From Balanoglossus misakiensis (taxonomy: Eukaryota; Animalia; Hemichordata), in assembly GCA_040954595.2 (NCBI GenBank), contig CM082588.2, positions 9,966,844-10,030,843 on the forward strand: a stretch of 64,000 nucleotides of DNA. Reading direction: 5' to 3'. The notes under the pieces were generated by a model. The model worked only from the letters and a program-made list of their open reading frames with translations, was not told where the DNA came from and ran no database searches. Made by a program: the position numbers and the translations under genes. Shown here piece by piece: positions 1,826 through 43,478 of this stretch (positions are counted from its first letter, which is position 1; each line of letters begins with the position of its first letter).

Positions 1826-1899
1826 CATAAACAACACTCTTACTTAGCAAAGGGAGTGGTCAGGTGAACTATATTCGCAGAGCTGACCAATTGTTTTAA

Positions 1900-6056: not shown

Positions 6057-6488
6057 TATGACACTGTCTTTTCTTACACTCCCCGTACGCTGGGAGTGTG
6101 AGAACAGAGTGTGGGAACAAATTGTTCTCACAATCTCACTGAATAGAAAGCTGTATATGACGCGAGTGCTGATTGGTTGGCAAAGTGTTCTGTCGCTACG
6201 CGCACTAAATTTTATCCAATGGCGCGATGTGTATTACAGGCACAGAGACTACAACGTGCCCCCAGACAACAATTCCAGAGTCATTTATTCAATGTTTTTA
6301 ACGAACTTGGCTAATTTGTGACCGTGTGAGAAAAAGAATCTCACACACCAAGGACCTGGGATCATATTTCTCACACTCGTCGGGGATATTCTGTCCCACA
6401 CGAGCCACAGGTGAGTGTGGGACAGAAAATCCCCAACTCTTGTGAGAAATATGATCCCAGGTCCTTGGGAGTGTGAGATTCTATTAAT
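6057..6488. mobile_element. Non-autonomous hairpin-rich interspersed element (possibly Crypton-type) in a transposase intron
   Basis: Large internal hairpin at ~6336-6484 (gaatctcacac..caaggacctgggatcatatttctcac...gtgagaaatatgatcccaggtccttgggagtgtgagattc). A related copy in the opposite orientation lies at ~30910-31150. The family assignment is tentative. Confidence 0.6.
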
Positions 6489-7655: not shown

Positions 7656-7689
<34 letters not shown>

Positions 7690-7850
7690 ACACCATCACC
7701 GGGTCTGCAGAGAGTTGTCACAGAAGAAGATGGGGAAAGCCTCCTTGGTGACTCTACAACATGTCTGGTTTTTTTGAACCAGCTTCTGGCCCTTGGCAAA
7801 AAATCTATTAGGCAAGTCTGTGCATTGAAGTCTTGCAGTGGATTGATATC

Positions 7851-10595: not shown

Positions 10596-13500
10596 CTATT
10601 GTAATCTTGAAGGAACAAATCCAGTGTAGCGGGCGAATGGGTCAGGAAATCGGTCCCGGATCTCCCAGACACAGCAACTGGGAATGACCACACGGTTTCC
10701 TGCACCTAAACGACCATACTGCCACATGACATACTGCCTATAGGCAGCATGTCGGTTAGCTGTGTTATTGTCATCATCATCATCATCAGTAGCAAAGATT
10801 TCTCGCCTGCAGGTCCTAGCCAAGGCCAACACAGCCTCATTGAGCACAAGCAAATTGAAATCCTGGTGACAGAAAGATAACAAAAGTTAGGTTCAGTAAT
10901 ATGTAAAAAAAAGGAAGAGCCTACAGTCAAACCTCTCTATAGTTGCTGTGTCTGGAAGATCCGGGACCGATTTCCTGACCCATTTGCCCGCAACACTGGA
11001 TTTGTTCCTTCAAGATTACAGTAGTTTTTTGTCCACATTTACATTCATTCACATAAAGTGTAAACCACAAGCAAATTTAATGAAATATTTACAAGACTTT
11101 CAACTCATATTGTAATCACTCAAGTTTTATTACTGACAGTGACATAGATGACATGCTGTTGTCATTTACCAAAATGTAACATTTTTAAAGGGACGAAGTC
11201 TCTCTCTCTCACTGCCCTTTTTCCAGTGATTTTGCTTGATACAAGACACTGTTCATGTTATTCTACATGTGGATATATAGTGAATCAACATTCGACCAAA
11301 CACACCTCCCATTCCTGCTTGTAGACACAAGAGTGAAAAACTAACCAAAATAAATAAACGGTCTCTACCATTTATTCATTCTGGGCAAGTTTTTACTTCG
11401 CATGATACAAGTGGGATGGAAGGTGTGTGTGGTTGAGCGTTGATTCACTATATATCCACATGTAAATTAACATAAATAGTGTCTTGTATCAAACATAATT
11501 AATGGAAAAAGGGCAGCGAGAGAGAGACTTTGTCCTGGGAGGTGTGTGTGGTCGAACGTTGATTCACTATATATCCACATGTAGAATAACATAAACGATG
11601 TCTTGTATCAAACATAATTGATAGAATAAGGGCAGCGAGAGAGAGACTTTGTCCCTTTAACTTTAGAATAATCAGTTTGTATTGATGTTTTGTTCTGAAG
11701 ATTTTGTAAATTTGTCAACAAAGATGTTTTCTATAGCACACTACTCGACGATTTCCTTACACTGCCATGCCAAATGTGACAATGAAGCTGCACTGGCCAC
11801 CAGTACTTCACAGAATTTTTTTTATATATATATTTAGTTGTGTTGATGTCAACACCAACTTCCAAAGGGAATTTTTATATCATTGTTTTCTTGACTTCAG
11901 AAAGCAATCTCAGGTTTTGAATAATAGTGGTGTGTTTCCAGTGTCTCTTTAAATTTCAATGTTTATCTGACCTCTGTATTGGTATATGCAGAATCTAACA
12001 CTAGACGTCTCAATATATGCATAATGCACAAATTATAAATTCCTGTATCGTGTTACAAATACATATTTCTGTATACTTTGAGTTTGTAACCTGTTCTTCC
12101 AAAGTTCCGTCCTCAACACATGCACTCTTTTCACAACCCTTCAGGTTGGCTCTAAAACTTCTGACAAAAACACACAAACAACCAGCTTTGCTTTGCTATA
12201 TGCAAACCATTGTGGATATACTTTGCAAAAATGTTACAGGAAGTACAGTTTGACTGTAGCCAGGTTAGTGGAACTGAATGTGTTCAATTTAACTTAGAGT
12301 TCAAATTTTCAGTTCATAGAGGTTTAGTAGTGAGTCCTTGTAGAATTATATTCATGTACAAGTTAAAATCCAAAAGCTTACTTGACTTACCGGTGATCTT
12401 GAGATGCAGTTTTGTGGCTGTTTATCGCAGCACATTTTCTCCATTTCTGTTGGCATCTGCCGACAGTGACTGCAAATGCACCAGTCAGGTGATTGAGTTG
12501 CTGAGGGTGGGTGGTATCCCTGCTGTTCTAGTGTTACTGGGAATATGAGATTAAACATCAAACCAGGCTGCCAATCAACCATTTGTAGCACCATTCTTTG
12601 CAGTTCATCGTTTTTCATGTGTTCAACAGCAGCCTGTGGACAGATTGTTAACAATTTCATTGAATGATACAAACAGCATTATTTTTATTGTTTTGTTTTA
12701 TTTATATATGTATGAAATAAATGTATGTTTTTAAAGTTTACCTCCATTCTTTGTCTCCTTTGTTGTAGTTGGGCAACAGCATCTCCAACAGATACGGATG
12801 TTGCACCCCTCCTACCCCTTCCACGTCGTCGGCTTGTACTCCCCCGAGCTGCAACACTTCCTCCTCTCTCAGTCTCACCACCTCGACCTCTACCCCTACC
12901 ACGGCCTCGACTTGTACTCCCCCGAGCTGCAACACTTCCTCCTCTCTCAGTCTCACCACCTCGACCTCTACCCCTACCACGGCCTCGACTTGTACTCCCC
13001 CGAGCTGCAACACTTCCTCCTCTCTCAGTCTCACCACCTCGACCTCTACCCCTACCACGGCCTTGACTTGTACTCCCCCGAGCTGCAACACTTCCTCCTC
13101 TCTCAGTCTCACCACCTCGACCTCTACCCCTACCACGGCCTCGACTTGTACTCCCCCGAGCTGCAACACTTCCTCCTCTCTCAGTCTCACCACCTCGACC
13201 TCTACCCCTACCACGGCCTCGACTTCTACCATGTTGTCCTCTACCTCTTTCATTTGTACTTGGGCTGGATTCTCTTTCTGCGTTATCTATTTCACTTGTC
13301 TGGAAAAAAAATAAGATTTTAAATTGAAAAATGGTAATAAATAATTTTGTACATGCAGTTATATTGCAAATCATGCAATTTCATGAATTAGGTGAAATTT
13401 GTGAACATAAATCCATTATTCATATGCATGTAAAATCCAGACGTGTACAATGATTGCCCTCTACCAAAATAATCAAATTTGCTCACTAACCCAAACAGTA

Positions 13501-14595
13501 ACATCTCTCCCCTAAGAAAATCAATAAGTTTGTGTTTCTTCTGGACAGGGATGGGGCATGGTGCATATCCCCTGTAAATGCATGCCATTCAAATTCAAGC
13601 CCACTGCTTGGTTCTATTTTTTATCACTTGGTTTTCACTCACTGCTTCTTCAGATCACAGAATCAATGAATTTAATCGGGGAGTTTCACACCTCTTGTGT
13701 ACATCATGTGTAATGCAACAATCACTATAAAATACCTGCGATCGCATAACTTCGTGTTCAAAGCCAATTGAAATGTAGACCTAACATTTTTTTTTCTTAT
13801 TCACCTATAAAAGTTCCGCTAAACTTATGACACGTAATTTTTGGCCAGCCTTTGTTTGTTTTCTTAGAACACGGGTTTTGACTATCGTTTCATCCATAGT
13901 GATACATAGCTTTATTTGAACGATCATTATCCATTTCCTGTCTCTGTTCGTGTTCATGACGCTTTGATACAAAAGAAATGTCAACAACATGCTATGCAAC
14001 AGTTACCAAGCATGACTCGCAAACTTTTAATTCGAAATATTCTATGCATATTTTTCCCCGGTGCAAGTGCATGCACTTGCTATATTCATAATAATAATCC
14101 CCCTGTTTATTAGCGCGTGAGCAGATGATAATGAGTACTCGATAGGGGCCGATCGGCATCCGGTCTAGTTCATGTACATTACGGCATCTACAGCTAGCTG
14201 CCAGCTGTCGATGTCACCGTAGTGCAACCCCAGTGCAACCCGGCGTCTACACGTACTTATGCTTACGTGTATTTTCGTTAGGAGTTTACAACTGGTGATC
14301 ACGTCATATTTGAAATAGAAATCAGTGCACCGTGGAACAAGAAAGCGGCCTAAAGAAACCGTAAATACTCAGCGAAAATTTAGATAAATCCCGGAACGTG
14401 AAAACAAGAATCAAAACAAACAAATGAACGTCGCAATGTACGGTAAATCACCGGCATCTCCATCTGACATCGTAAAGTTTACCTTCTTTATCATTGTCAA
14501 TGTCAATGTCATTCATAAAAAAACATTCTCTACTAATTTTCTCTAGTTTACAGAATTCTATAAGTATTCGTATATGTACTTACCTCGCATTCCAT
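10596..14595 (-). CDS. Kolobok accessory protein (KolX-like / P2X7 cytoplasmic-ballast-like Cys-rich domain) with RG-rich repeat N-terminus; 4 predicted exons, frame intact
   Basis: Phase-0 GT-AG exons 14584-14595 (MECE), 12742-13299, 12391-12633 ([22 protein letters not shown]) and 10596-10862 ([44 protein letters not shown]). These match the WCxCxxC..CC and RxxAYR..W..LG..R.VIPSC.V..IR..FP motifs of the P2X7 C-terminal/nanor-like domain. The 12-nt first exon is the least certain. Confidence 0.82.
11189..11656. mobile_element. Kolobok-type MITE nested in an intron of the accessory gene, right arm partly duplicated
   Basis: agggacgaagtctctctc...gagagagactttgtccct with TTAA at 11185-11188 and 11657-11660. 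About 120 bp of the right arm occurs twice (~11418-11536 and ~11538-11656). Confidence 0.88.
12835..13224 (-). repeat. Coding minisatellite, 78-bp unit x ~5 ([26 protein letters not shown])
   Basis: Near-identical 78-bp units inside exon 2 of the accessory gene. Confidence 0.95.
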
Positions 14596-16504
14596 TGTTG
14601 TGATCCAGGACCAGGGTCATGAACGTACGTGACCAGGTCATTGACTGAAGCACATGTGTGTGTTGACATTGTGACGCAACCGCAATATGCGTAGTTTTTC
14701 ACTTCGCGGGAGGTCAACATGGCGGTCGATCGAAATCGCGCGCACGGCCAGGCAGAAATCCAGTCTTTAGCCTAAACGGCGAAAACGTAGTTCAGGGTAT
14801 TCTTCAAGCAATGTGTGGTCATTATATGTCATAATAATGGATTTGACGTAAGTATTTAATGGAGTTTGGAGGCAAAAAGAGAGAGACTTTGTCCCTTTAA
14901 TTATCTAATTTATGCATTGTTAACAATGCACTGTGACGTTTACTGCATGTAATTTTTTTCCCCTGTGGAAACTTACTATGCTTTGAATACATGTTCCCTA
15001 ATGGGGTGTTGAAGGATACAGTAGGATCTGTTTCTGTAGCAAATATGACACTGTTTTCAACATATTTGACTGGTGGCAATATGTGATATTATGTTGGTAT
15101 CCATCATGTAACTCAGATCACCTATATGAAGCTCCATACCAAATTTCACAGAAGTCGGCTGATCAATTCCAGAAAAGTAGATTTTTTACCAAAAATGTGG
15201 AAAAAGACAAAAAATGCATAAAAAGTAGAAAATTCACACTATTAGATTAAAACACACAGAATGTGTAAGGCTAATATAAGGTACTATCATACCATTTTTC
15301 AAATCAATATGACCAGGAGTTGTTGAGTGTCTGAGTTTTGACCAAATTAAGGTTTTTCCCGGCTAATTTGCATATTTCTGGTAATGAAAAATTTGTTTGA
15401 ACAAACTCCCATCTACAGCCTAGCATGCATCTACACACCAAATATCAAGGTTATTGGCGCAACGGTTTTCAAGTTTTTGATGTGTACACATACATCCATC
15501 TATCCGTCCATACGTCCATACAAAAGGTCCCACTGGTATACACAAAAAATGTAACACTTAACATCTTACAGTACAGGGCCTTGCTAGTTGATGTGGTACA
15601 ATTCTATCATATCACTTCACAGCTGGTAGCCAAGGGCAGTGTTTGCACAGAGGAGTCTCCTGAATGTCTTCGCTCGTTTGCACATCTTCAGTGATAATGT
15701 CTGGATTACATTGACATGAAACTGTTTGTTCAGTAGTCTTTCAACTGCCAGCCGCCTGGGTTCATTTTACAGCATAAACACTGAAAATATTGTAGCAGTC
15801 AATAATATAACCTACACACCGTGTAAAATTCACCATGTTCTAAAGATATGTTGATGTCTAATGTGCATTGTGACGTACAGGGCATGCAAGGCTAAAGCTT
15901 GTCAAAAGTTGACAAAGAAAAAGACCAGACCAGGTGCCTGTTTTAAAATATGCTTCTTTCCAAGGACCTTGGTGATGAGCAATGAATTGGGGAATGTTCA
16001 TGAGACCCATTCATTTCACTGGACCCGCATATGTAATGATATGACCATGAAATTGAACTGTTCCCAGGAGCTACTGAGAGTTGCCTTGTTTCACCCCCAA
16101 GTTACTACCTGGGGTTTTTTACAATGTCAACAGTAGTTCCAAAAATGTTGTACTTTTATGAATAATCAATTAGGGTAGATTTATTCGTGGTAGTAAAACA
16201 TTCTGGCCTGCAGCTGCCAAAACAAAGACAATTACAAGTAAGGGACTGGACGTAAACTACTAAGGGGGAGGGCAGGGGAATTGACGAAAGCGATGGCCTC
16301 AAATTAATGACCCTCCCCAAGTTACGGACTCCGAAAAAAATATGGCCCGTCCCCCCAAACGTGAGCACAAAAATTTATGACCCTCCCTTAATGCAAAAAT
16401 ATAACTATAAAGATCTTCACATCATCAATATTGTACTTGTAACTTGATTTGTACAGTGTACTGTAAATAAAAAGCACAATAACAATGCTCCATATTGGTG
16501 AGTA

Positions 16505-17528
16505 TAGTGCAGGAGCTAAACCCAAATTTTGGCATAATTGTGCACTTTGGATTAAAAGCATGAAACTTGGTACACTTATGCATTGAGCCATGGCGGCCAT
16601 TTTCTGATATGGAACCAACATGACAGCGCCCTCTAGTGGCCAGAAACATACATTGATACTTTAAAATTGTGCACTTCCGGTTAAAAGAATTAAATTTGCT
16701 ACAATTATTCATTGACCCATGGCGGACATTTTCCAATATGGATCCCAAAAGACAGCGCCCTCTAGTGGCTAGAAACTGACATTTACTCTTTTCCCCCATT
16801 AATGACACTTTTTGGGCAAGTTTAACACTCAGAGACAGGAATGTGGGTTGTAAAACATGCTTGCTGTCATACATTCCTTTGGATATTATCCTAATCCTGA
16901 TGTACATATATCAAATCAATCTTGTATGTTACTAATTGAACGATTTGCTCTTCGAAATAACAGAACCAGTTGAATACACAAAGTCATGCAAAGGGGTAAG
17001 ACAACACTTCTTCTCCAGAAAGTCAAGGGTTCTCGAGAATACAGGCAGCTCCTAAAGAACATGTGCTATGAGAAACCTAGCAAAGCTATATCAAATCAAC
17101 AGAATCCCAGTGGAAATCAAGTTGAACAACTCTTAGTCAAGCCCAAGAAAAGAGTCAACCTCAGGAAATCAGTTGCAAAAAGTCATGCACATGTTTCTGT
17201 AGGTGCTTTAGGTCTAGTCGTACAGCACTGCTCTTTGTTTCTGTCATCAAGATTGATCTGATACATGTACATCAGGATTAGGATAATATACACATCAATG
17301 TATGGTAGCAAGCATGTTTTACAACCCACATTCCTGTTTCAAGTGTTACAAATGACCAAAAAGTGCCATTAATGGGGGGAAAAGTGTGAATGTCAGTTTC
17401 TGGCCACAAGAGGGCGCTGTCATTTCGGAACCATATCATATAATGGCCGCCATGGGTCAATGCATAAGTGTACCAAGTTTCATGCTTTTAACCCAAAGTG
17501 CATGATTTTTTGGTTAACTGCCCTACTA
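16505..17528. mobile_element. Non-autonomous DNA element with TAG...CTA ends and long internal inverted repeats (Academ-like)
   Basis: Starts tagtgcagg and ends gccctacta. The arms are inverted, e.g. aaaagcatgaaacttggtacacttatgcattg (~16554) versus caatgcataagtgtaccaagtttcatgctttt (~17458). No TSD is evident. Confidence 0.6.
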
Positions 17529-17556
17529 CAAATCTAGGCACCTACAATGGCCTTGC

Positions 17557-18075
17557 ATGGAGAGGCCCACACCCTACAGAAGTGCAGACTCTAGCTTTGT
17601 CGGAAGCATCGCAGAAGTGATAAGTTTAGGGTTTAGCTGCGGAACCGATCGCTCTATATGTACACGCTCGGTCGCCGATGATCTCTCCCGATCACATTTT
17701 CTGTCATTAAAAATTAATGACAATGGAACACTTTCTGTGATTGTTGATGGTAAAACAGTTCCGTTGGAACAACATGGATTTCCACAGCACATACCTGCTA
17801 CAACAGAAAGTCTAGAAATCATGAATGTCTTTCTTCAAAGAGTGCATATCTGCACAGGTGTTCCCAAGCGCAGCCATTATCATATCATGTTCGCCAAAAC
17901 CATTACTGTTGAGACTAATCACGGTGAAACTGCGGCTGGTAACTACAAGCAGATCATCAGGGATGTTCGCTGTTCCCTCCTCCTTCCTGTGACCAGTTAT
18001 GGCCGTACTTGCCGAAGATGCCAAAAAACGTACGACTACGTCAGCCAAAAAACAACCAACAAAGTGTCCCAACAG
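17557..18075 (+). pseudogene. Duplicated, 5'-truncated first exon of the P-like transposase
   Basis: Encodes ICTG...IRDVRCSLLL..TCRRC and ends at the phase-0 donor CAG|gtaata (18076). No downstream exon is present in this copy. Confidence 0.65.
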
Positions 18076-18284
18076 GTAATACTAACATATCATAGAATGC
18101 AATGCATCGAACATTATTGATTTGCATGTTACGTATAGTTCTATAGTGGATGTAGAATCCCGGAGAGACTAATATGATCACATGGTACATTTCATAAACA
18201 GAATACTTTAATTTCTTGTAAATATGAAATACAGTGAATAAATAAAATGTATCGGCAGTGCAAAATGTAAACCAACAGTGGAGT

Positions 18285-20259
18285 TCATTCCCCACACCTC
18301 ATACATTTAAATGGAAGGTCACTATCATTTGCGTGTCCCATGTACTCAGTGAGGGATAAACCAGAACATTCCTGGTGCAGCCACCCAAGACAAGCATCAC
18401 ACTGAATCCACGCTTCTCCACTGACGTACGAATCCCCACACATGCAACACTCGCTCTCTGAACTCCCTCTTTTCTTCTTGATGGTTTTTCCCTTACCCTT
18501 TCCTTTGCCCTTCCCTTTCCCAACCCGTCCTGCACATGCCGACTGGGTGGCCGTGACTGACTGTGTTGTAGAGACATTTATCGCTTTTCTTTTTTGGATT
18601 TCCACGCGATGGGCTGACGATTTTGCACGACCAATCTTATCTAGCAGCGATTTCCTATATTGATTATTTGCGATGCGGAAATATCGCCGAACAATATCAT
18701 TGAACAATTCAACTATTACTCCAGACTCTATGTCAACAAACAGGCGTTTCCAAGCACTCTGCAAATTTACGTCACCGAGCAACTTATTTTCGGCGTGACT
18801 AATAACTTTGCCCCCAAAGACATTCAAAGCTTTCCAACTCCACACGTCGTCTTTCTACTTGACAAAAAAAGTCAAAGGCATTGTCAGAAATATGCTGAAG
18901 CGACCGTCTTATGTTTTGTCGCCTGACTGTCTCTTCCAAGCTAGATTTTTCAGACGATATTTCGAGAAGCTCAGACTCTGAAGCTTCTAACATACTTAAC
19001 AAACCCAGTGTTGCTTTGCATTTCTCGTACTTAGCACGGTCACTAGACAAATTTCTTCTCAATTCAGCAGTGACTGAATATTTTGCTTTGGCAACACATC
19101 GGCCACCCAGATACCGCAGCTTTCCCAACCCACTTTCTGATGATCGGAATGTCGCTGATCTCGGAATGTCTACTTTCTCTACCTGATCCCGTAGAATTTT
19201 CTCTTCTACGTGTTTGAACACCCTTGCTCTGAGTGCATCAGCAATGTTCATTACACTGGCATACTCGTCCGTGTTCGGTTGGTGTCCCAGGAGATCACAG
19301 ACTGAATTGTTGAACTCATCGGATTTAACAAACCGATCATATGTCTTGAGGAGAGAGGTCAACTCCTTTGTGTCCGGCTCTACCAGAGATTGTACCTTGC
19401 TCAATAAATTTGATGTAATAAAATTACAAAAAAATTGCAATTTGCTTTCGTTTTCTGGTAATAACAACCGGGTCATAATTTCCCTTTTCTTTTTTCTTCT
19501 TTCTGTGTTCGACGTTAATTTGGACTGGAGGTTGAGTACCACATCTCGACCGTTAATTTCGCCTTCTTTATGCTGTAGTGCAGGCGTTTCAGCCTCGGAA
19601 TCCTTCCATGATGGCCCAGCATTCGATGTTGTTCCGAGCGAGTCATCGGAACTGCCGCCAACGACCGATTCCTGCTGGCTGCCAACTTGAATGTCTCCAG
19701 TTTCTGAATTACGAAATTACCATAATGAATTTTATATATGGGTCGAACAATAAAAGAAGCCAGGCACTCTTCTAATTTATGATATTACAATACGAAAATA
19801 CCTAAAATCTGTAACATTTTTATGATCTAAAGATCGCTTTCGATTACCTTGCATCAGGAGGTCAATTTCCTGCAGTTCTTTATCATTAAAATCACTGTCA
19901 TCGTCACTACAGTCTTCTACAATGGGTGTTGCCATAGCGCCTTCATCGCCTGGGTCTTTGTTATCGTCATCTATTTCTTCAGTCTGATCTTCTGTAAACA
20001 AAACATTCAGGATAAGGTAGAATTACGAATACACTGTTAAAGAACATGTATGACACCTTTGGTTTTGGTGTTTAATGTATGATTCATTTGCAACATGCTT
20101 CATTTCGTAATGACAGATGAAAAAACAAATCGATTATTGACCATCGACTGCAATCCCAACTGAACGGAGGCCATATGTTGGACGATGTCACGGTTGTTTC
20201 CTTTGATCTTTGCCGAAAATTTCTGTCCACGCCCATCTTGTCTATTTCGCTACGGGGTC
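18285..20259 (-). pseudogene. Duplicated 3' part of the PIF1-PHD gene (frameshifted)
   Basis: Same sequence as 21105-23057, but an 8-bp deletion at ~18824 splits it into ORFs 18799-19542 and 18285-18845. Confidence 0.8.
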
Positions 20260-21104
20260 TTATTCAAAACCTAATCACGTAGCGATAATATTCCGCCAGG
20301 TGTTATCTCATTAATATTCATAAGAATGACAAAGGTATAAAAGAAGAACAGGGCAGAAGACTCTGTGTCATTTCCTCGCACAGTCAGGGCAGTCTCCACC
20401 GGTATAGAACATGGCTTCGAGACAAGACGTAGCTGCTCAGAAAACCACTTCCAACGTAGCTGTAGACGCTGCCTCACGAAGTTCGGCAGCCCAGCAGCCA
20501 ACTCGGGGAACGGCCACTGATTCTGATATCGCACAAGCTTTTGTGGACGCCCATCGAATTACACCTTACGCGAGTCAAGGCGTAAAGAACAACATAGATT
20601 TCCACAGCACATACCTGCTACAACAGAAAGTCTAGAAATCATGAATGTCTTTCTTCAAAGAGTGCATATCTGCACAGGTGTTCCCAAGCGCAGCCATTAT
20701 CATATCATGTTCGCCAAAACCATTACTGTTGAGACTAATCACGGTGAAACTGCGGCTGGTAACTACAAGCAGATCATCAGGGATGTTCGCTGTTCCCTCC
20801 TCCTTCCTGTGACCAGTTATGGCCGTACTTGCCGAAGATGCCAAAAAACGTACGACTACGTCAGCCAAAAAACAACCAACAAAGTGTCCCAACAGGTAAT
20901 ACTAACATATCATAGAATGCAATGCATCGAACATTATTGATTTGCATGTTACGTATAGTTCTATAGTGGATGTAGAATCCCGGAGAGACTAATATGATCA
21001 CATGGTACATTTCATAAACAGAATACTTTAATTTCTTGAAAATATGAAATACAGTGAATAAATAAAATGTATCGGCAGTGCAAAATGTAAACCAACAGTG
21101 GAGT

Positions 21105-24100
21105 TCATTCCCCACACCTCATACATTTAAATGGAAGGTCACTATCATTTGCGTGTCCCATGTACTCAGTGAGGGATAAACCAGAACATTCCTGGTGCAG
21201 CCACCCAAGACAAGCATCACACTGAATCCACGCTTCTCCACTGACGTACGAATCCCCACACATGCAACAGTAGCTCTCTGAACTCCCTCTCTTCTTCTTG
21301 ATGGTTTTTCCCTTACCCTTTCCTTTGCCCTTCCCTTTCCCAACCCGTCCTGCACTTGCCGACTGGGTGGCCGTGACTGACTGTGTTGTAGAGACATTTA
21401 TCGCTTTTCTTTTTTGGATTTCCACGCGATGGGCTGACGATTTTGCACGACCAATCTTATCTAGCAGCGATTTCCTATATTGATTATTTGCGATGCGGAA
21501 ATATCGCCGAACAATATCATTGAACAATTCGACTATTACTTCAGACTCTATGTCAACAAACAGGCGTTTCCAAGCACTCTGCAAATTTACGTCACCGAGC
21601 AACTTATTTTCGGCGTGACTAATAACTTTGCCCCCAAAGACATTGAATGCTTCAAAGCTTTCCAACTGCACACGTCGTCTTTCTACTTGACAAAAAAAGT
21701 CAAAGGAATTGTCAGAAATATGCTGAAGCGACCGTCTTATGTTTTGTCGCCTGACTGTCTCTTCCAAGCTAGATTTTTCAGACGATGTTTCGAGAAGCTC
21801 AGACTCTGAAGCTTCTAACATACTTAACAAATCCAGTGTTGCTTTGCATTTCTCGTACTTAGCACGGTCACTAGACAAATTTCTTCTTAATTCAGCAGTG
21901 ACTGAATATTTTGCTTTGGCAACACATCGGCCACCCAGATACCGCAGCTTTCCCAACCCACTTTCTGATGATCGGAATGTCGCTGATCTCGGAATGTCTA
22001 CTTTCTCTACCTGATCCCGTAGAATTTTCTCTTCTACGTGTTTGAACACCCTTGCTCTGAGTGCATCGGCAATGTTCATTACACTGCCATACTCGTCCGT
22101 GTTCGGTTGGTGTCCCAGGAGATCACAGACTGAATTGTTGAACTCATCGGATTTAACAAACCGATCATATGTCTTGAGGAGAGAGGTCAACTCCTTTGTG
22201 TCCGGCTCCACCAGAGATTGTACCTTGCTCAATAAATTTGAAGTAATAAAATTACAAAAAATTTGCAATTTGCTTTCGTTTTCCCGTAATAACAACCGGG
22301 TCATAATTTCCCTTTTCTTTTTTCTTCTTTCTGTGTTCGACGCTAATTTGGACTGGAGGTTGAGTACCACATCTCGTACTGTACTGCTGTAGTGCAGGCG
22401 TTTCAGCCTCGGAATCCTTCCATGATGGCCCAGCATTCGATGTTGTTCCGAGCGAGTCATCGGAACTGCCGCCAACGACCGATTCCTGCTGGCTGCCAAC
22501 TTGAATGTCTCCAGTTTCTGAATTACGAAATTACCATAATGAATTTTATATATGGGTCGAACAATAAAAGAAGCCAGGCACTCTTCTAATTCATGATATT
22601 ACAATACGAAAATACCTAAAATCTGTAACATTTTTATGATCTAAAAATCGCTTTCGATTACCTTGCATCAGGAGGTCAATTTCCTGCAGTTCTTTATCAT
22701 TAAAATCACTGTCATCGTCACTACAGTCTTCTACAATGGGTGTTGCCATAGCGCCTTCATCGCCTGGGTCTTTGTTATCATCATCTATTTCAGTCTGATC
22801 TTCTTTAAACAAAACATTCAGGATAAGGTAGAATTATGAATACACTGTTAAAGAACACCTTTGGTTTTGGTGTTAAATGTATGATTGCAACATGCTTCAT
22901 TTCGTAATGACAGATGAAAAAACAAATCGATTATTGACCATCGAATCCAATCCCAACTGAACGGAGGCCATATGTTGGACGATGTCACGGTTGTTTCCTT
23001 TGATCTTTGCCGAAAATTTCTGTCCACGCCCATCTTGTCTATTTCGCTACGGGGTCTGTTTTGACTGCAAATACATTTTGCAGATAACTTTACTATTTAA
23101 CCACCTACCGAATTTATGACAACAAGAAAGGTCATCCAGTATAAGTAGTTGTTTCCTTACATAAAAATCCAACACGGTCTTTCTGGGCGGTAAACATCTC
23201 GATTTATGGTAGTTGACTACACGGAGGTCGTCCGACGACTTCACTCTTCCAAGCCCAACGCTTAATTGTCCTGGCTGGAACACTCTCTTTGCATCAACCT
23301 GTACTCGCTGAAGCATCTGACCTAAACCACCTACATAAATGCACAGGGAAATATCTTTAAGAAATTCAATTTGTCCTTTGAAAATATCGTTACGGTACTA
23401 TTTGTCCAGATCACTGGATAAAATTTCAAGTTTCCGTTTTGCTGAGAAAGCTACAACTGTATCGGTGAAACGAAGGCTTACTGTTTCATAGTAAAAGTAT
23501 ATGAAACACGCATACCGTACAGATCCTCTCGCTCCAGGGTCTCTGTAAGACACACACACACACCCACACACGTACGTCACATATAAGAAACCTGTTTACA
23601 TTGCGCTTTGTGGTAAGTAAGAGCGAATGCCAGTTTGAGGGGTATCTGTGTCCTACTTGCCACAGTGGATTTTGGGCCAGGTAATTACACACCGAAATTG
23701 TCGGCCTCCACCTTTTGTACGATTCCATTTTCAAAGAACACGGTTACGTTATCATCTCCCATTTCACGAACTATACACCTTGTAATCCGTTTACCATCGT
23801 CGGGCTCAGATTTCGTATTAACATTACAGGCGCACCAACTTTCAAGCAGAGCAGCCTTGATATCTGAATACACTTGAGATATCGTTTATCACCTGGAAAT
23901 GAAAACAGTTACATGTTTAAATTTTATCTTCGATATTTCATTCATATAGTACACCAAAACGAAAACACGGGCGACAAGTCAGATTAGTTGCAAAATCTAC
24001 CCACCGAACGTAAACTCAAGTAAACAATTTGGTTTTATCAATCTCACGTGGATCTTCAAGTCAAATATTAGGCTTACTTTGCAAAGTTTTTTTGCTAAAT

Positions 24101-26181
24101 ATTTATTTCAACCATCCAATGCTCCTAAATAATGTCGGTCATTTTACTCCCCATTCTTCGTACTGTGTTACTAATTTTCTGGGGTTTATCTGGAATGCAC
24201 TTTTGCGTGTTTTTTAAGTTACGGGAGGGGTGATATGAACTACGGTCGTATGTTCACTTGCCTTCATCTTTAGACTCGTACGTCTTCATATCTCCCGGCA
24301 TTTCAAAAAGTCTTTCTGCGTTGAACATTTCAACTTCCAAATTGGTTGAGAATACATGGGTTGCTCTCGCACAATCTTGAAATGGCCGGGAGAGACTCTT
24401 GAGCAATTATCTGTGTCTTCGCTAACACTTCCTATGGCGGTTTCTCGTACGGCTTTTACCATAAGGGGATCTGTTTGTCGATGTACTTGCTGCAGGTTTA
24501 TATGATGCAGGTGACGGAACAGGTGCGACATGAAACAGAATTCACCGCTGTCTTCATATCGTGGGTTAGCTACTGGCGGCAATTGATAGAAGTCACCACA
24601 TGCAACAATTTGTATGCCACCGTAGTAATCTCTGGACCCTCTGATTTTTCTGCAGATTTCATCAACTTGCTCGTATATTTTCTTGCTTATCTGCGGAATT
24701 ATGTACAGCATATTATTTATAATGCATAAATGATCATAAAACCGACACATGTGCAGGTGTATAAAAAATCTAAAATTTGCAGCTTGTGACTCTTTATAAT
24801 AAAAACGTAATACAACTAGTGCAAGCTTCAATATTCATATTTACCATCGATATCTCATCAATTATGAGTATATCCGTGGGCAAAATCATATTCTTCGCAG
24901 CATAAAAAGCGGGATCCGTGTTTAGCAAGTCGCATAATTCTTGCGTAAGATATATTCCATCCTTCATTTAAATAATTATGAAAAAGGATAAAGTTAACCA
25001 CAAGATGTCGACATCACATCGAACATAACTTAAAACGAAGGAAAGCAGGGTACGGCATTATCTCAGTAATAAAGGCCGAAGGATAACATTATCTCTATAC
25101 TAAATGGCGAAGGACAGTAATATTTCTATATTTTAGGCCGAAGGACATCATTGTCTCATTCCCACGGAGGAAAATAGTTTTGTAGTACATTATTACCCCA
25201 CTTGAACATCGGAATAGAATTGACGAATAAAATAAAAAACTGTGCATGGGGGAATTGTCTGTGTGGTCTGCGGATTTGTATACAGAGTCTATGGCGGAGA
25301 CGAAGACTTCGAATCAATTCAAACTACTTTATTACTACTTCATTACTATAGCTACGTAAGCTGGTATGCTACAGAAAAGTGTGTCAACTCAAATGAGAGA
25401 AGTGGAAAGACCGGATGCATTCAGAGTCAATCCCCAGAAAGTGCTTCAAAGTGGTCTCAAAACAAGTACTAATGAAAAGGAATTAGCGACATGTTATATA
25501 GCTCATCTTGGCGGGAAAGTTTATAAAAGCTAGATTGTTATTGGCTAATAAATGAGTCATCCGGAGACTTTGTTTTAGTACACATCCAGGTTATTTATGT
25601 GATCAGAGTTTATGATATCACTGTCAAGATCTTAACTAGAGTGTCATGTTTACACGAATCGAAACAGCTGTTCTAAACAAACACTGCCTTAGAGGAAATA
25701 CACGTGAATTTGTTCGTCCAAAATTCGCCCTTCAGTAAAAAGATGCCGTTCTTCTCCATTTCGTATAGAGATAATGATGTCCTTCGCCCTAAAATATGGA
25801 GATATTACTGTCATTCGCCCTTAAGCATACAGATAATCGTGTCCTTCGCTTTCCTTTGTTTTAGTCTCACACTTACATCGGTTTTATTGTCCAAAGAGGC
25901 CCCCGCATCCGTGGACATCATTGGCGATCATTGGGACTTTGTCATGTTCAGTTTTGATGAAATCTTTCGAGAGTACGCTTTGGTGAAACCAATCATGAAA
26001 ACTTACCCGCAAGCCTGCCCAAGCATGTACAGTCATTGCCCGAGGGTACTGCAAAGTTGCTATCCCAGTGGAGGCTGTCACGTAGATGCTTTTTTTTTTC
26101 CAGAATAACGGTTTTTCCTGTACCGGCTTGGCCTGTTATCAGGATATTGTGTCCGAAATTCAAGAGGTTTATAGCATCCAT
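21105..26181 (-). pseudogene. PIF1-family helicase fused to an acidic linker and C-terminal PHD finger, multi-exon, frameshifted
   Basis: Walker A TGQAGTGKT and TASTGIA..TVHAWAG (26007-26181); Walker B IIDEISM (~24845-24866); GGIQIVACGDFYQLPPV and QVHRQ (24690-24470); LKVGAPVMLIRNL..MVNG and RTQIPLKLAFALTYHKAQ (~23600-23850); QPGQLSVGLGRV (23050-23330). The final exon carries a C4HC3 PHD: CCMC..WIQCDACLGWLHQEC..FKCMRC. Confidence 0.85.
25028..25866. mobile_element. Inverted-repeat MITE-like insertion in PIF1 intron 1
   Basis: The left arm has ~31-bp subrepeats (ggcgaaggacagtaatatttctatattttaggccgaaggacatcatt). These are mirrored at ~25765-25865 (aatgatgtccttcgccctaaaatatggagatattactgtcattcgcc). 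Confidence 0.65.
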
Positions 26182-28974
26182 TGTGTACTTGAGTCCAGTG
26201 AATTTGTCAAAAATCTTTAAAAATACTATAGATGCTCAAAACTCGGAATCGGACACGGAGATCGGAAACGGATCAACTGCGTAATCAACGGATCATGTGA
26301 TGATGTGATCGCGGCCAATCGGTAAAGGCTGCCGCACACGAGAGAAATAAGCTGAGCAAAAAGTCATTCGAGGAATTTTGCTCAGCAAGTTTCTCTCGTG
26401 TGCGGTGGACTTGAGTAATTTTCCTCGCGAGGAAAAAAAATATCAAACATGTTGAATATCGTGATCCGCGGCGCAAAAGATCAGGAAAAATCGCCCGCAC
26501 ACGGAAGGAAAATTTATATTCTCACCCAAATTGAAAGTTATGTTTGTGAGCGAAAAAACTTGAAGTGCATTTTCTGCAAAGTTCAAGTTCATGGGTCTAC
26601 ACCATAAATTACGGCCGTACAAACCCGTGAGATAATACTAGTAAAAGTTGTATGTTCGTATTTTTTTTTTTTATTGCATTGGGAGGGGGGGGGCAACGCT
26701 ACAACCATAATGATATTTGTAAATTTACAAAAGACAAATGGCGATGGAACATAATATGTAAACGCCGAGAAAAATCACTACCATAGAGAAATCACGATGT
26801 TTTATATGTGCTAATATAGTATGTACATCAACATAATTTAACACCTAATCTTTCTACATATTGCAGGATACTGGCAAGATGACTAGCACTGAAACGAAAA
26901 GTGATAGTTTGTGTGAAGTGCTGCAAACCCTGCCAGAAAATGCAGTCAGCCTGATTTCGTCGATGGTTAAAAATAGCACAGTGAAACCAACCAGCAGAAG
27001 ATGGGATAGAGATGTAATAAAATTCGGCCTACACTTGTGGCTTAGAACGCCACAGGGCTATGAAGACATAAGGAAAAGCGGCCATCTTCTACTCCCCTCC
27101 CCTAGACGTCTGCAGATGTACAAGAACATAATCGATAAAAAATCTGGGTTTCATGACGACATATTTCAGTGGATGAAAGACACGGCTGCAGAGAAAAACA
27201 TCCTCCCATCTGGAGGCTCGGGTGGTATCATACTAGATGAGATGGCCATCCAGGAGGATCTACAGATTGACACCAGAGGTGGCATTAGTAAACTAGTTGG
27301 TGATGTAGACCTCGGAGACGAATGTACCAGTATGGATGTGATGAAGGCTGGATACAAGAAAGGAGTACTTGCGAATCATACTCTACAATTTCAATTTCTG
27401 GGCTTTACCGGTTTCACCTTCCCATTTGCGCACTTTCCAACTCGCCAAGTTCAGGCCTATCATCTTTACGTTCTATTTTGGGAAGCTGTTGATAAATTAA
27501 CAGACTGGGGCTTTACTGTTGATTTAGCAATGTTCGATGGTGCCGCAGCAAATCGTTCTTTCCTGAAAATGAATTTCAACGGCAACCCACTTGATGAAAA
27601 GATGCACGCCCCGAACCGCCTCTGCAGTCCTTCTGACACCGTTATAATGTGTATGGATCCAAACATGTAATTAAGAGACTAAGGAACAGTGTACTGAAGA
27701 GTGGTGAAGGCGATACCTATCCCAGGCATTTGCGATGGAATGGTGTTTATATTGAATGGCAACACTGGCGCGATTCCTACAAGTGGGACACAGAAGTTAA
27801 CCCGGAAATGTGTAGAATCAACCACAGGTTAACAACCGAACACATTTTCCCGGGAATGTCCGCAAAAATGCGAAACCATCTCGCTGAGCAGGTCCTCGAC
27901 AGTGAAATGCTCCACCTAATGGTTTGCTTCCAGCAAAGTCTTCCCGATCCAGATATAGCCAGGCACGACTGAATGGCACAATCGAATTCTTACGCCACAC
28001 CAGTCAAATCGCGTCATTTTTCACTGACGACAGGGAAGTAAAAGGGTGTGATGATGGGAGGCTGTTGCAGTTACTCGTGGCAAGAGATTGGTTCCAATCG
28101 TGGGAGAAAGACGAGTTGGCAGACGAGACAACAACCAAAAGCAAGAGGGCCAGAAGACTGATGTCACATGAGACACGTGAAGACATTGTGTTTTGCCTGA
28201 CCGCAGTCGTCGAGATTTGTGAGAAGAGGGCGGCTAAGTCGCTGACTACACTCCCGAGTCGACTCAACAGTGACGTCGTTGAGAACTTTTTATGCCAGCA
28301 GAGGACGAATCATAACGGCTCGAACACCAACCCTACGTACCTCCAATATACAAAGGGGTGAACAGTGTTTTGCTCAGTCAAACGAGCCGTACGTCGGCTA
28401 AGAAAGCCAATGCTGGTATAAGGGCGGCACAGCCTTTTAATTTCACTACACCCAAACCTTTAAAGGTTCAGAAAATAAGTCAAAATTGAGCGGTGCACCC
28501 CCTGTTGTTGTTCATTTATTCCTTCTCGAAATGAGAAGAGTTACATCAACACATTAAATTACAGTCGGATTGTTTTTTGACCATTAACTTGTATCTACGG
28601 ATGACAACGTAACTCAGACGATTAATGGACTCTACATACATACTATAGAATTGTATTAAATGTTGCGACTTAGAAATGTGATGGTAGTTTATGTCTTCAT
28701 GACTAATAGATAATATATAATAATTACTGAAATGTGGTGTACATGCACATTTATTGGTGCAATGACATCACTGGTCATAATGTGTTTTCGAATATGTTAA
28801 TTACGATCAATAAATATATGAAAGCAGCTGCAGATTTCTCTCTGTGTTTGTGTTGCATGTTTTCAATGATGTATTATTTGAGCAATAGACTGTAACGGAT
28901 TTATTAGAAACTTAAACCCACCCACAGTTGTATGTACAACCAGCAAAAGTTACAGCTAATGGAGGTTTAAAGAT

Positions 28975-33550: not shown

Positions 33551-33786
33551 AATGAATTATATATAAATAAGTGATTTCTAAACCATGAAAAAATGCACTC
33601 GCGCCGTTTGTCAACTTATTGTTTAACGCAAACTCATTATTTAACGCAAACTCATTATTTAAGGCCTGTTCACACAACCCCTTGCATTTGGATCATTATG
33701 TACACATATAGTCCCCACACGTGAACAAGAAATGCACATTACTTGCGGTCATTTCATTTTTATTATACTCATATATACTTATATAT

Positions 33787-36700
33787 CTGTAATGGAAATG
33801 GAGAAAGTACCTTATATTTTCTGTAAAATAGACATTTAATTGGCAAGCCGTCCTGCATCAATTATTAATTGTGTACATGCACTAAAGCGCCCTCACTGCT
33901 GGGTGTGTTGTATGGTCTTTAACCCTGTTTCAAATTAGAGTACTTTCTGCAATTTCAAGACAGATCTTACGTGCCATTGGAGAGCTCCATTGACTGGTCA
34001 TTCATACTGTTTTCATTCATTCATTGCGGCATCAATATATTTTATCTATTCTAGCCAAAGAGCTTGGCACCTGTTGAAATGAACTCATCTGCTGTGGGCC
34101 AGTTTATTGGTGGCAGTTGAGCTGAGGAGAGCACCTTCCTTCCCGGCACGCCACCAAGTAAAGTTCCACGCCGCCCCCCACAGATGCCAGCATTCATTCA
34201 TGCGAGTGAGTGTAATTGCAAATTTGCCTATTCTAGATCTGTAATGGAAATGGAGAAAGTACCTTATATTTTCTGTAAAATAGACATTTAATTGGCAAGC
34301 CGTCCTGCATCAATTATTAATTGTGTACATGCACTAAAGCGCCCTCACTGCTGGGTGTGTTGTATGGTCTTTAACCCTGTTTCAAATTAGAGTACTTTCT
34401 GCAATTTCAAGACAGATCTTACGTGCCATTGGAGAGCTCCATTGACTGGTCATTCATACTGTTTTCATTCATTCATTGCGGCATCAATATATTTTATCTA
34501 TTCTAGCCAAAGAGCTTGGCACCTGTTGAAATGAACTCATCTGCTGTGGGCCAGTTTATTGGTGGCAGTTGAGCTGAGGAGAGCACCTTCCTTCCCGGCA
34601 CGCCACCAAGTAAAGTTCCACGCCGCCCACCACAGATGCCAGCATTCATTCATGCGAGTGAGTGTAATTGCAAATTTGCCTATTCTAGAATCTTACGTGC
34701 CATTGGAGAGCTCCATTGACTGGTCATTCATACTGTTTTCATTCATTCATTGCGGCATCAATATATTTTATCTATTCTAGCCGAAGAGCTTGGCACCTGT
34801 TGAAATGAACTCATCTGCTGTGGGCCAGTTTATTGGTGGCAGTTGAGCTGAGGAGAGCACCTTTCTTCCCGGCACGCCACCAAGTAAAGTTCCACGCCGC
34901 CCACCACAGATGCCAGCATTCATTCATGCGAGTGAGTGTAATTGCAAATTTGCCTATTCTTACGTGCCATTGGAGAGCTCCATTGACTGGTCATTCATAC
35001 TGTTTTCATTCATTCATTGCGGCATCAATATATTTTATCTATTCTAGCCAAAGAGCTTGGCACCTGTTGAAATGAACTCATCTGCTGTGGGCCAGTTTAT
35101 TGGTGGCAGTTGAGCTGAGGAGAGCACCTTCCTTCCCGGCACGCCACCAAGTAAAGTTCCACGCCGCCCACCACAGATGCCAGCATTCATTCATGCGAGT
35201 GAGTGTAATTGCAAATTTGCCTATTCTAGATCTGTAATGGAAATGGAGAAAGTACCTTATATTTTCTGTAAAATAGACATTTAATTGGCAAGCCGTCCTG
35301 CATCAATTATTAATTGTGAACATGCACTAAAGCGCCCTCACTGCTGGGTGTGTTGTATGGTCTTTAACCCTGTTTCAAATTAGAGTACTTTCTGCAATTT
35401 CAAGACAGATCTTACGTGCCATTGGAGAGCTCCATTGACTGGTCATTCATACTGTTTTCATTCATTCATTGCGGCATCAATATATTTTATCTATTCTAGC
35501 CAAAGAGCTTGGCACCTGTTGAAATGAACTCATCTGCTGTGGGCCAGTTTATTGGTGGCAGTTGAGCTGAGGAGAGCACCTTCCTTCCCGGCACGCCACC
35601 AAGTAAAGTTCCACGCCGCCCACCACAGATGCCAGCATTCATTCATGCGAGTGAGTGTAATTGCAAATTTGCCTATTCTAGATCTGTAATGGAAATGGAG
35701 AAAGTACCTTATATTTTCTGTAAAATAGACATTTAATTGGCAAGCCGTCCTGCATCAATTATTAATTGTGTACATGCACTAAAGCGCCCTCACTGCTGGG
35801 TGTGTTGTATGGTCTTTAACCCTGTTTCAAATTAGAGTACTTTCTGCAATTTCAAGACAGATCTTACGTGCCATTGGAGAGCTCCATTGACTGGTCATTC
35901 ATACTGTTTTCATTCATTCATTGCGGCATCAATATATTTTATCTATTCTAGCCAAAGAGCTTGGCACCTGTTGAAATGAACTCATCTGCTGTGGGCCAGT
36001 TTATTGGTGGCAGTTGAGCTAAGGAGAGCACCTTCCTTCCCGGCACGCCACCAAGTAAAGTTCCACGCCGCCCACCACAGATGCCAGCATTCATTCATGC
36101 GAGTGAGTGTAATTGCAAATTTGCCTATTCTAGAATCTTACGTGCCATTGGAGAGCTCCATTCATACTGTTTTCATTCATTCATTGCGGCATCAATATAT
36201 TTTATCTATTCTAGCCGAAGAGCTTGGCACCTGTTGAAATGAACTCATCTGCTGTGGGCCAGTTTATTGGTGGCAGTTGAGCTGAGGAGAGCACCTTCCT
36301 TCCCGGCACGCCACCAAGTAAAGTTCCACGCCGCCCACCACAGATGCCAGCATTCATTCATGCGAGTGAGTGTAATTGCAAATTTGCCTATTCTTACGTG
36401 CCATTGGAGAGCTCCATTGACTGGTCATTCATACTGTTTTCATTCATTCATTGCGGCATCAATATATTTTATCTATTCTAGCCAAAGAGCTTGGCACCTG
36501 TTGAAATGAACTCATCTGCTGTGGGCCAGTTTATTGGTGGCAGTTGAGCTGAGGAGAGCACCTTCCTTCCCGGCACGCCACCAAGTAAAGTTCCACGCCG
36601 CCCACCACAGATGCCAGCATTCATTCATGCGAGTGAGTGTAATTGCAAATTTGCCTATTCTAGATCTGTAATGGAAATGGAGAAAGTACCTTATATTTTC

Positions 36701-39700
36701 TGTAAAATAGACATTTAATTGGCAAGCCGTCCTGCATCAATTATTAATTGTGTACATGCACTAAAGCGCCCTCACTGCTGGGTGTGTTGTATGGTCTTTA
36801 ACCCTGTTTCAAATTAGAGTACTTTCTGCAATTTCAAGACAGATCTTACGTGCCATTGGAGAGCTCCATTGACTGGTCATTCATACTGTTTTCATTCATT
36901 CATTGCGGCATCAATATATTTTATCTATTCTAGCCAAAGAGCTTGGCACCTGTTGAAATGAACTCATCTGCTGTGGGCCAGTTTATTGGTGGCAGTTGAG
37001 CTGAGGAGAGCACCTTCCTTCCCGGCACGCCACCAAGTAAAGTTCCACGCCACCCACCACAGATGCCAGCATTCATTCATGCGAGTGAGTGTAATTGCAA
37101 ATTTGCCTATTCTAGAATCTTACGTGCCATTGGAGAGCTCCATTGACTGGTCATTCATACTGTTTTCATTCATTCATTGCGGCATCAATATATTTTATCT
37201 ATTCTAGCCGAAGAGCTTGGCACCTGTTGAAATGAACTCATCTGCTGTGGGCCAGTTTATTGGTGGCAGTTGAGCTGAGGAGAGCACCTTCCTTCCCGGC
37301 ACGCCACCAAGTAAAGTTCCACGCCGCCCACCACAGATGCCAGCATTCATTCATGCGAGTGAGTGTAATTGCAAATTTGCCTATTCTTACGTGCCATTGG
37401 AGAGCTCCATTGACTGGTCATTCATACTGTTTTCATTCATTCATTGCGGCATCAATATATTTTATCTATTCTAGCCAAAGAGCTTGGCACCTGTTGAAAT
37501 GAACTCATCTGCTGTGGGCCAGTTTATTGGTGGCAGTTGAGCTGAGGAGAGCACCTTCCTTCCCGGCACGCCACCAAGTAAAGTTCCACGCCGCCCACCA
37601 CAGATGCCAGCATTCATTCATGCGAGTGAGTGTAATTGCAAATTTGCCTATTCTAGATCTGTAATGGAAATGGAGAAAGTACCTTATATTTTCTGTAAAA
37701 TAGACATTTAATTGGCAAGCCGTCCTGCATCAATTATTAATTGTGTACATGCACTAAAGCGCCCTCACTGCTGGGTGTGTTGTATGGTCTTTAACCCTGT
37801 TTCAAATTAGAGTACTTTCTGCAATTTCAAGACAGATCTTACGTGCCATTGGAGAGCTCCATTGACTGGTCATTCATACTGTTTTCATTCATTCATTGCG
37901 GCATCAATATATTTTATCTATTCTAGCCAAAGAGCTTGGCACCTGTTGAAATGAACTCATCTGCTGTGGGCCAGTTTATTGGTGGCAGTTGAGCTGAGGA
38001 GAGCACCTTCCTTCCCGGCACGCCACCAAGTAAAGTTCCACGCCGCCCACCACAGATGCCAGCATTCATTCATGCGAGTGAGTGTAATTGCAAATTTGCC
38101 TATTCTAGATCTGTAATGGAAATGGAGAAAGTACCTTATATTTTCTGTAAAATAGACATTTAATTGGCAAGCCGTCCTGCATCAATTATTAATTGTGTAC
38201 ATGCACTAAAGCGCCCTCACTGCTGGGTGTGTTGTATGGTCTTTAACCCTGTTTCAAATTAGAGTACTTTCTGCAATTTCAAGACAGATCTTACGTGCCA
38301 TTGGAGAGCTCCATTGACTGGTCATTCATACTGTTTTCATTCATTCATTGCGGCATCAATATATTTTATCTATTCTAGCCAAAGAGCTTGGCACCTGTTG
38401 AAATGAACTCATCTGCTGTGGGCCAGTTTATTGGTGGCAGTTGAGCTGAGGAGAGCACCTTCCTTCCCGGCACGCCACCAAGTAAAGTTCCACGCCGCCC
38501 ACCACAGATGCCAGCATTCATTCATGCGAGTGAGTGTAATTGCAAATTTGCCTATTCTAGATCTGTAATGGAAATGGAGAAAGTACCTTATATTTTCTGT
38601 AAAATAGACATTTAATTGGCAAGCCGTCCTGCATCAATTATTAATTGTGTACATGCACTAAAGCGCCCTCACTGCTGGGTGTGTTGTATGGTCTTTAACC
38701 CTGTTTCAAATTAGAGTACTTTCTGCAATTTCAAGACAGATCTTACGTGCCATTGGAGAGCTCCATTGACTGGTCATTCATACTGTTTTCATTCATTCAT
38801 TGCGGCATCAATATATTTTATCTATTCTAGCCAAAGAGCTTGGCACCTGTTGAAATGAACTCATCTGCTGTGGGCCAGTTTATTGGTGGCAGTTGAGCTG
38901 AGGAGAGCACCTTCCTTCCCGGCACGCCACCAAGTAAAGTTCCACGCCGCCCACCACAGATGCCAGCATTCATTCATGCGAGTGAGTGTAATTGCAAATT
39001 TGCCTATTCTAGATCTGTAATGGAAATGGAGAAAGTACCTTATATTTTCTGTAAAATAGACATTTAATTGGCAAGCCGTCCTGCATCAATTATTAATTGT
39101 GTACATGCACTAAAGCGCCCTCACTGCTGGGTGTGTTGTATGGTCTTTAACCCTGTTTCAAATTAGAGTACTTTCTGCAATTTCAAGACAGATCTTACGT
39201 GCCATTGGAGAGCTCCATTGACTGGTCATTCATACTGTTTTCATTCATTCATTGCGGCATCAATATATTTTATCTATTCTAGCCAAAGAGCTTGGCACCT
39301 GTTGAAATGAACTCATCCTTCCCGGCACGCCACCAAGTAAAGTTCCACGCCGCCCACCACAGATGCCAGCATTCATTCATGCGAGTGAGTGTAATTGCAA
39401 ATTTGCCTATTCTAGAATCTTACGTGCCATTGGAGAGCTCCATTGACTGGTCATTCATACTGTTTTCATTCATTCATTGCGGCATCAATATATTTTATCT
39501 ATTCTAGCCGAAGAGCTTGGCACCTGTTGAAATGAACTCATCTGCTGTGGGCCAGTTTATTGGTGGCAGTTGAGCTGAGGAGAGCACCTTCCTTCCCGGC
39601 ACGCCACCAAGTAAAGTTCCACGCCGCCCACCACAGATGCCAGCATTCATTCATGCGAGTGAGTGTAATTGCAAATTTGCCTATTCTTACGTGCCATTGG

Positions 39701-43315: not shown

Positions 43316-43478
43316 GGTCACAGCTGAAGTATTTGTTCAAGTACTGACTGACTAAACGCGGCATGGAACAAACGAACGAACGACTTCACGTTCGGAAAAA
43401 AAATCGTTGCGAGCTGTTGGGTGCCTCTATAGTTGTCGGCAACCGTTCTTTTTTATTGCTAAACAATGCTGTCAGAGC

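Follow-up and report, generated by a model that had tools for sequence, protein, structure and literature searches.

A decayed P-related transposon with an antisense Pif1-PHD gene in Balanoglossus misakiensis and a predicted split transposase

Does a Pif1-type helicase gene that lies antisense inside an intron of a P-like transposase gene belong to the transposon, and what would it do there? The question is raised by a 64,000-nucleotide window of the genome of the hemichordate Balanoglossus misakiensis (contig CM082588.2, positions 9,966,844 to 10,030,843), in which this arrangement had been described in an earlier note. We consider it quite likely that the locus is a decayed two-gene DNA transposon encoding a P-type transposase that lacks its C-terminal domain (CTD) and, on the opposite strand, a Pif1-PHD protein with a predicted CTD, the two together making up one cut-and-paste machine. 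The helicase protein is then probably a second transposase subunit rather than cargo. The element is real, and it is apparently an undescribed variant of the P-type transposon. Its split transposase is the more interesting feature, the nested gene order being local.

Related loci were gathered by transposase alignment alone, which generated 55 metagenome contigs and 2 genome contigs. Parts of the helicase gene were found in 19/57 loci, antisense in all 19; in most of the remaining 38 the sequence is too short for a verdict. When the transposase end was present with at least 1 kb of downstream sequence, 14/19 loci were helicase-positive. The five negatives were L013, L027, L028, L031 and L054. 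L013 is a true miss, lacking the helicase in 9.1 kb of upstream and 2.7 kb of downstream sequence; the flanks of L028 and L054 are shorter than the 2.4-kb gap found in their relative L036. About ten assemblies contributed helicase-positive loci, among which L018 and L026 are near-duplicates. A scan of all loci longer than 3 kb identified long terminal inverted repeats (TIRs) bracketing both genes in L003, L011 and L020. The TIRs are about 120-260 bp long and whole elements in these relatives about 9-12 kb. The L003 and L011 contigs stop inside or at a TIR. L020 starts with CACAGG, finishes with CCTGTG and has an 8-bp target-site duplication (TSD), TCGGTAAT, on either side. Because 19/57 loci fetched by their transposase carry helicase parts antisense, and both genes share TIRs in three, the comparison argues that the pairing is a lineage trait.

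The proposal in the earlier note of a P-superfamily lineage carrying a PIF1-PHD gene is thus borne out. The objection that homologous transposases might lack the helicase applies to L013; 19/57 loci have parts of the gene and most others are too short. The helicase showed no element boundaries of its own in the relatives' loci. Between loci, the identity of the transposase gene is correlated with that of the helicase gene (rho 0.60 for 8 loci, rho 0.76 for 11 loci), a correlation that is confounded by kinship and fits joint inheritance. When 20 of about 150 helicase-family proteins were looked up, the named members belonged to a hemichordate, two bivalves, a sea cucumber and a priapulid. Two of the contigs, L056 and L057, are filed under Sedimenticola metagenome-assembled genomes; they contain this intron-containing animal transposon and repeats resembling miniature inverted-repeat transposable elements (MITEs), and are probably host DNA binned into those genomes.

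The Pfam and PDB matches of the transposase point to P alone. Its main exon (26867-28489) matched PF21787 (TNP-like RNase H N) with 49 bits against a cut-off of 24.6, and resembles 17 database proteins at 36-51% identity. The sole PDB match of the homologue profile was the Drosophila P transposase (6p5a_A, E 1e-7). Catalytic residues D130 and D230 are invariant, and the E of DVVEN was aligned to 6p5a_A. PF21788, the insertion domain, was barely above cut-off in L011 (25 vs 24.8) and below it in P0010 and P0017; the domain aligned weakly to 6p5a_A 324-408 and may, with similar weakness, be classed as GTP-binding. The transposase stops about 70 codons past the catalytic E, without a CTD, and homologous transposases likewise end soon after the E. 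The transposase profile had no match in viral contigs.

In the earlier note this exon was joined to a Cys-rich exon by a donor with GT at 20896 (CAG/GTAATA) and an acceptor ending at 26866 (TTGCAG/GAT). Both sites are phase 0 and the join is in frame. Homologous transposases have a counterpart of the Cys-rich exon in their N-terminal part (P0002, E 4e-6; P0007, E 1e-4; profile, E 4e-14). Six loci were compared by eye, together with L019: a phase-0 GT-AG intron of 300-400 nt sits at the equivalent position in L001, L002, L003 and L017, L004 and L023 are intron-free there, and the L019 intron sits elsewhere. Because of the homology to transposase N-termini and the same phase-0 intron in four close relatives, we assign the Cys-rich exon to the transposase gene on comparative grounds, and the suspicion that it came from a different gene is not borne out. 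The copy used in that join is nevertheless a 5'-truncated duplicate, because 17767-20260 is a tandem copy of 20587-23057 (about 2.5 kb, 97% alike) and the complete exon lies at about 17542-18075. Two boundaries had to be dropped. The proposed start codon at 20411 lies in the unrelated 326-nt spacer between the duplicates, in another frame, with no match in 169 homologous proteins or 55 loci, and the element was ended at 28490 where the stop codon ends at 28489. High-copy repeats (16536-17509) stand immediately 5' of the complete exon, and a tblastx search 5' of 17542 found nothing credible as an earlier transposase exon.

An RFX-like profile had no match in the window, and winged-helix matches of this type in P0015, L020 and P0040 were below cut-off. 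THAP domains (E<=0.05) were absent from 10 homologues and from L011 and L020, some of which may miss the first exon. In P0040 (Priapulus caudatus, XP_014663331.1) the RFX-like and Cys-rich N-terminal part of the transposase is fused straight to a CTD-like domain, without DDE or helicase; this predicted protein would represent a deletion derivative or a domesticated gene.

The multi-exon PIF1+PHD gene reported on the minus strand (26181-21105) was recovered as described, with seven exons and six introns whose splice sites are phase-compatible; the donor of exon 3 is GC. It encodes, in order, a Pif1 helicase, an acidic linker, a helical region and a PHD finger, and its product matched Pfam PIF1 (1.5e-12) and PHD (1.4e-4). 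PIF1 and Pif1_2B were both matched in Pfam, and the PDB matches of the helicase are Pif1 proteins. Frameshifts fall in exons 1, 3, 4 and 7, and in the transposase main exon near 27661, 27957 and 28352. The window copy, with both genes frameshifted, is dead. Short-read contigs of one sample, by which copy number and other copies in the host were probed, have an extra base at 28350 that would cancel the third transposase frameshift. Low-depth contigs about 87-92% alike over 21225-21876 indicate that the sequenced sample contains the PHD/CTD exon in at least one further, more diverged version. The 28 differences listed fall 10/9/9 at codon positions 1/2/3, which fits neutral decay.

Could the helicase gene instead be an independent insertion, whether a piece of a Helitron, a captured host PIF1 or another element, that fell into the transposase intron by chance? 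The nested layout is seen in 0/57 related loci, and the locus carries other insertions and a duplication, all of which such an origin would accommodate. It does not accommodate a helicase of the same family antisense next to the transposase in 19/57 loci and within shared TIRs in three. Full-length helicase proteins also have no Rep match, and the helicase profile scored 300 bits on yeast Pif1 and 279 on human Pif1 vs 89 on Helraiser. Furthermore, among seven loci compared, L003 has both the transposase and the middle domain of the helicase protein nearest to those of the window. Judged by this gene linkage, chance insertion is largely refuted and we hold it to be highly improbable. A Helitron origin of the helicase was rejected, as there is no HUH Rep, relatives have TIRs and a TSD, and the profile is closer to cellular Pif1. 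Helitron_like_N had no match among 11 helicase proteins, and P0042 and P0091 start at the helicase.

If the helicase belongs to the element, the next issue is whether its protein is a subunit of the transposase or a passenger. The middle domain, between the helicase and the PHD finger, is predicted to be the missing P-transposase CTD. An HMM of the middle domain had no PDB match, an alignment that included the PHD finger returned PHD proteins in its best 60 matches, and Foldseek searches of two models against the PDB and one against viral structures gave no match at E<=0.001. ESM Atlas returned one uninformative match at 0.78. A complex prediction for the L003 transposase and middle domain scored 0.00, with alignments unused and the partner fold uncertain. 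The Pif1-PHD gene might be conserved accessory cargo, comparable to RecQ in AcademH and KolobokH, that aids transposition or repair; the CTD match would reflect a common helical arrangement and the transposase would work without a CTD. We think this improbable, and prefer the two-subunit transposase.

Pif1 helicases move 5'-to-3'. The Drosophila CTD lies between the RNase H and GTP-binding domains and grips DNA of both the transposon and the target. For this reason, the partner would act by providing the CTD in trans, at the same time docking the 5'-to-3' Pif1 motor on the transpososome. According to a passage in the P-element review, the ends left by P transposase have 17 nt of single strand that loop over the CTD (PMC7776569). 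Since they loop over this domain, the leading candidate among possible jobs, though short of a majority view, is that the motor acts on single-stranded transposon ends and integration gaps, remodels or releases the strand-transfer complex and passes it to repair. Gap-repair synthesis at the donor site would come next, removal of G-quadruplex (G4) or R-loop obstacles at the target is less likely, and a small share is left to other jobs. The PHD finger would steer insertion towards marked chromatin.

Is nesting a property of the family? In the relatives the genes are tail-to-tail in 6 loci, 13 loci fit nesting the other way round, with the transposase inside a helicase intron, and the window order occurs in 0/57. 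Nesting as a family trait was rejected on this count. The helicase gene does lie within the transposase intron in the window, as the earlier note had it, but this layout does not define the family; of the intact copies with the same layout, TIRs and TSDs foreseen there, three with TIRs and one with an 8-bp TSD were found, none with the layout. In L005, L020 and L018 both flanks show the reverse nesting, and the GT/AG phases match; in ten other loci one side suggests it. Reverse nesting occurs in two clades (L005/L020; L018) via different introns, and the intron after helicase exon 5 is at the site that houses the transposase in L005 and L020. The nearest relatives of the window copy are tail-to-tail with a short, empty transposase intron. 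In a quick tree (52 rows, SH-aLRT only, loci with at least 300 matched residues) the clade that groups as sister to the window has three informative members, and all three are tail-to-tail. Because its order is absent from other loci and the sister clade is tail-to-tail, the order in the window probably derives by rearrangement from a tail-to-tail ancestor. Reciprocal loss in a tandem duplicate of the tail-to-tail arrangement could give rise to all three orders, with no gene flip. Internal tandem duplication and reciprocal loss probably made the nesting, and would spare both genes and keep their orientations opposite. The window itself contains an internal tandem duplication, as this route would involve.

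The nested order could also stem from one dead copy that was rearranged post mortem or misassembled, without ever having been present in an active family. No other locus has the window order, the 97% duplicate could come from two haplotypes set one after the other, one contig omits it, and among the contigs listed none spans from the helicase start to the transposase exon over the repeat at 26310-26520. On the other hand, splice sites of both strands are all present and phase-compatible, and overlapping contigs span the Cys-rich exon, the intron and the PHD exon. Nested orders are also viable, because two separate clades have the mirror nesting, with donor and acceptor phases that match. A dead-copy layout has some plausibility but seems on the whole doubtful. 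It concerns the layout only and is compatible with a two-gene transposon.

One short-read contig runs from first-copy sequence directly into the helicase. Because it omits 2797 nt, an unduplicated allele probably exists, and the tandem duplicate may be a haplotype-merging artefact of the assembly. The right end of the element seems to be lost or replaced. No TIR had been noticed in the window, and our scan of 1-17700 against 28481-64000 for a TIR or TSD of this copy likewise found only unrelated repeats and chance 14-mers.

Compared with known systems, the element resembles the Drosophila P element and THAP9 (PDB 6P5A, 6PE2) in its helix-turn-helix (HTH), split RNase H D-D-E, GTP-binding-like insertion domain, helical CTD-like domain, TIRs with CA...TG ends and 8-bp TSD (L020); P-transposase domains were taken from a passage of PMC7776569. 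It differs in having no THAP match in 12 transposase N-termini, which instead show a Cys-rich domain and a winged helix with weak resemblance to RFX, and in the location of the CTD-like domain, which a second gene on the opposite strand encodes in fusion with Pif1 and PHD. It would work like a P element, but because THAP and a CTD in cis are both absent, we place it in a lineage related to P elements rather than among the canonical ones. Helitrons (Rep-Pif1, Helraiser 7LCC) share a transposon-encoded Pif1-family helicase, but here there is no HUH Rep, and TIRs, a TSD and a DDE enzyme are found. Cellular Pif1 (yeast 5O6B, human 6HPT) is the nearest solved relative of the helicase core, including the 2B domain, whereas the transposon-borne protein has hardly any N-terminal extension before Walker A and a long C-terminal extension with the CTD-like domain and PHD. 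AcademH has a RecQ helicase and some AcademH elements carry PHD. AcademH and KolobokH share the combination of a cut-and-paste transposase and a helicase gene, but the helicase here is SF1B Pif1, not RecQ (SF2), the transposase is P-type, and part of it appears to have moved onto the helicase. AcademH figures as a helicase-carrying DDE transposon in passages of PMC10045372 and PMC10799480. Passages on this group give RecQ as the KolobokH helicase (PMC9587614) and place the helicase gene of Kolobok-1_CCri on the complementary strand (PMC9587614, PMC10045372).

Features of the transposon locus in the window, in order of position.
Feature	Position	Strand	Remarks
Complete Cys-rich transposase exon, copy 1	~17542-18075	+	donor GT 18076; 5' edge uncertain
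First tandem-duplication unit	17767-20260		second copy of helicase exons 6-7 (CTD-like domain, PHD); frameshift near 18820
Spacer between duplicates	20261-20586 (326 nt)		ATG 20411; multicopy repeat piece 20556-20587; outside transposase
5'-truncated Cys-rich exon duplicate (exon 1 of the earlier note)	20587-20895	+	donor GT 20896
Helicase exon 7	21105-22517	-	acidic linker, helical domain, CTD-like domain, basic linker, PHD; frameshift near 22378
PHD finger	21114-21287	-	
Predicted P-transposase C-terminal domain (middle domain)	21417-21989	-	best match 6p5a_B
Helicase exon 6 (acidic linker)	22662-22802	-	
Helicase exon 5 (last helicase motif)	23109-23321	-	
Helicase exon 4 (2B domain region)	23600-23892	-	frameshifted
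Helicase exon 3 (GDFYQLPPV motif)	24262-24690	-	frameshifted; GC donor
Helicase exon 2 (Walker B, DEISM)	24845-24961	-	
MITE-like insertion, helicase intron 1	25031-25863		subterminal 31-bp repeats; multicopy
Helicase exon 1 (Walker A)	26007-26181	-	begins at helicase, without Rep domain; frameshifted
Hairpin/MITE-like multicopy repeat between both genes	26310-26520		
Transposase main exon	26867-28489	+	HTH; split RNase H with D (ILDEM), D (FDG), E (DVVEN); insertion domain
Right junction	28555-28570		several contigs depart from the window after 28564; others enter at 28563

Elsewhere in the window, a DUF7869 transposase-like gene (41457-44492), presumably Sola-like, is apparently split by an inversion, with its apparent N-terminal half at 42359-43336 (-), partly repeated at 41457-41990, and its DUF7869 half at 43356-44492 (+). 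An open reading frame (ORF) for a His-Me finger endonuclease (47032-47580, +; PF05551, 1e-12) could, by analogy, be part of a KolobokP-type element, a type to which a passage in PMC9587614 ascribes a His-Me finger nuclease. At 7453-9282 the 3' fragment of an element resembling a long interspersed nuclear element (LINE; 7975-9282, -) breaks an acidic, Cys-rich ORF and is flanked by a 189-bp duplication (7662-7850 / 9040-9228). A spliced gene at 12685-14590 (-), which has an exon with 5.4 tandem 78-bp RG-rich repeats and no Pfam match, may belong to the host or to another element. A satellite-like array with 452/274/267-bp units covers 33785-41069, with a displaced copy at 49210-50087, and a second complex array lies at 50.4-63.6 kb.

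To our knowledge, the known helicase-carrying DDE elements use RecQ. Full-text literature searches found no description of a P-type element with Pif1, in keeping with the novelty suspected earlier; subscription journals, supplements and Repbase/Dfam were outside their scope, and an entry there is quite possible. A term search of a giant-transposon review gave no mention of Pif1 (PMC6431247). A bolder reading, which we on balance lean slightly against, is that of an undescribed, widespread P-type lineage of marine invertebrates with an obligate two-subunit transposase, in which a winged helix replaces THAP, the CTD rides on a Pif1-PHD motor, and mutual intron nesting arose at least three times, in both directions, locking the genes against deletion.

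It is not clear what any helicase-bearing eukaryotic cut-and-paste transposon does with its helicase. In this element a transposase domain is predicted to tether the motor to the transpososome, and since the position of that domain on DNA is known from the P-element structure, there is a handle on the role of the CTD. Disassembly and repair at the target site are called uninvestigated in a passage of the P-element review (PMC7776569), and this system offers a direct handle on that step. The near-intact elements L003, L011 and L020 are templates for a two-component assay, and the mutual antisense nesting is a natural experiment on the origin of nested genes.

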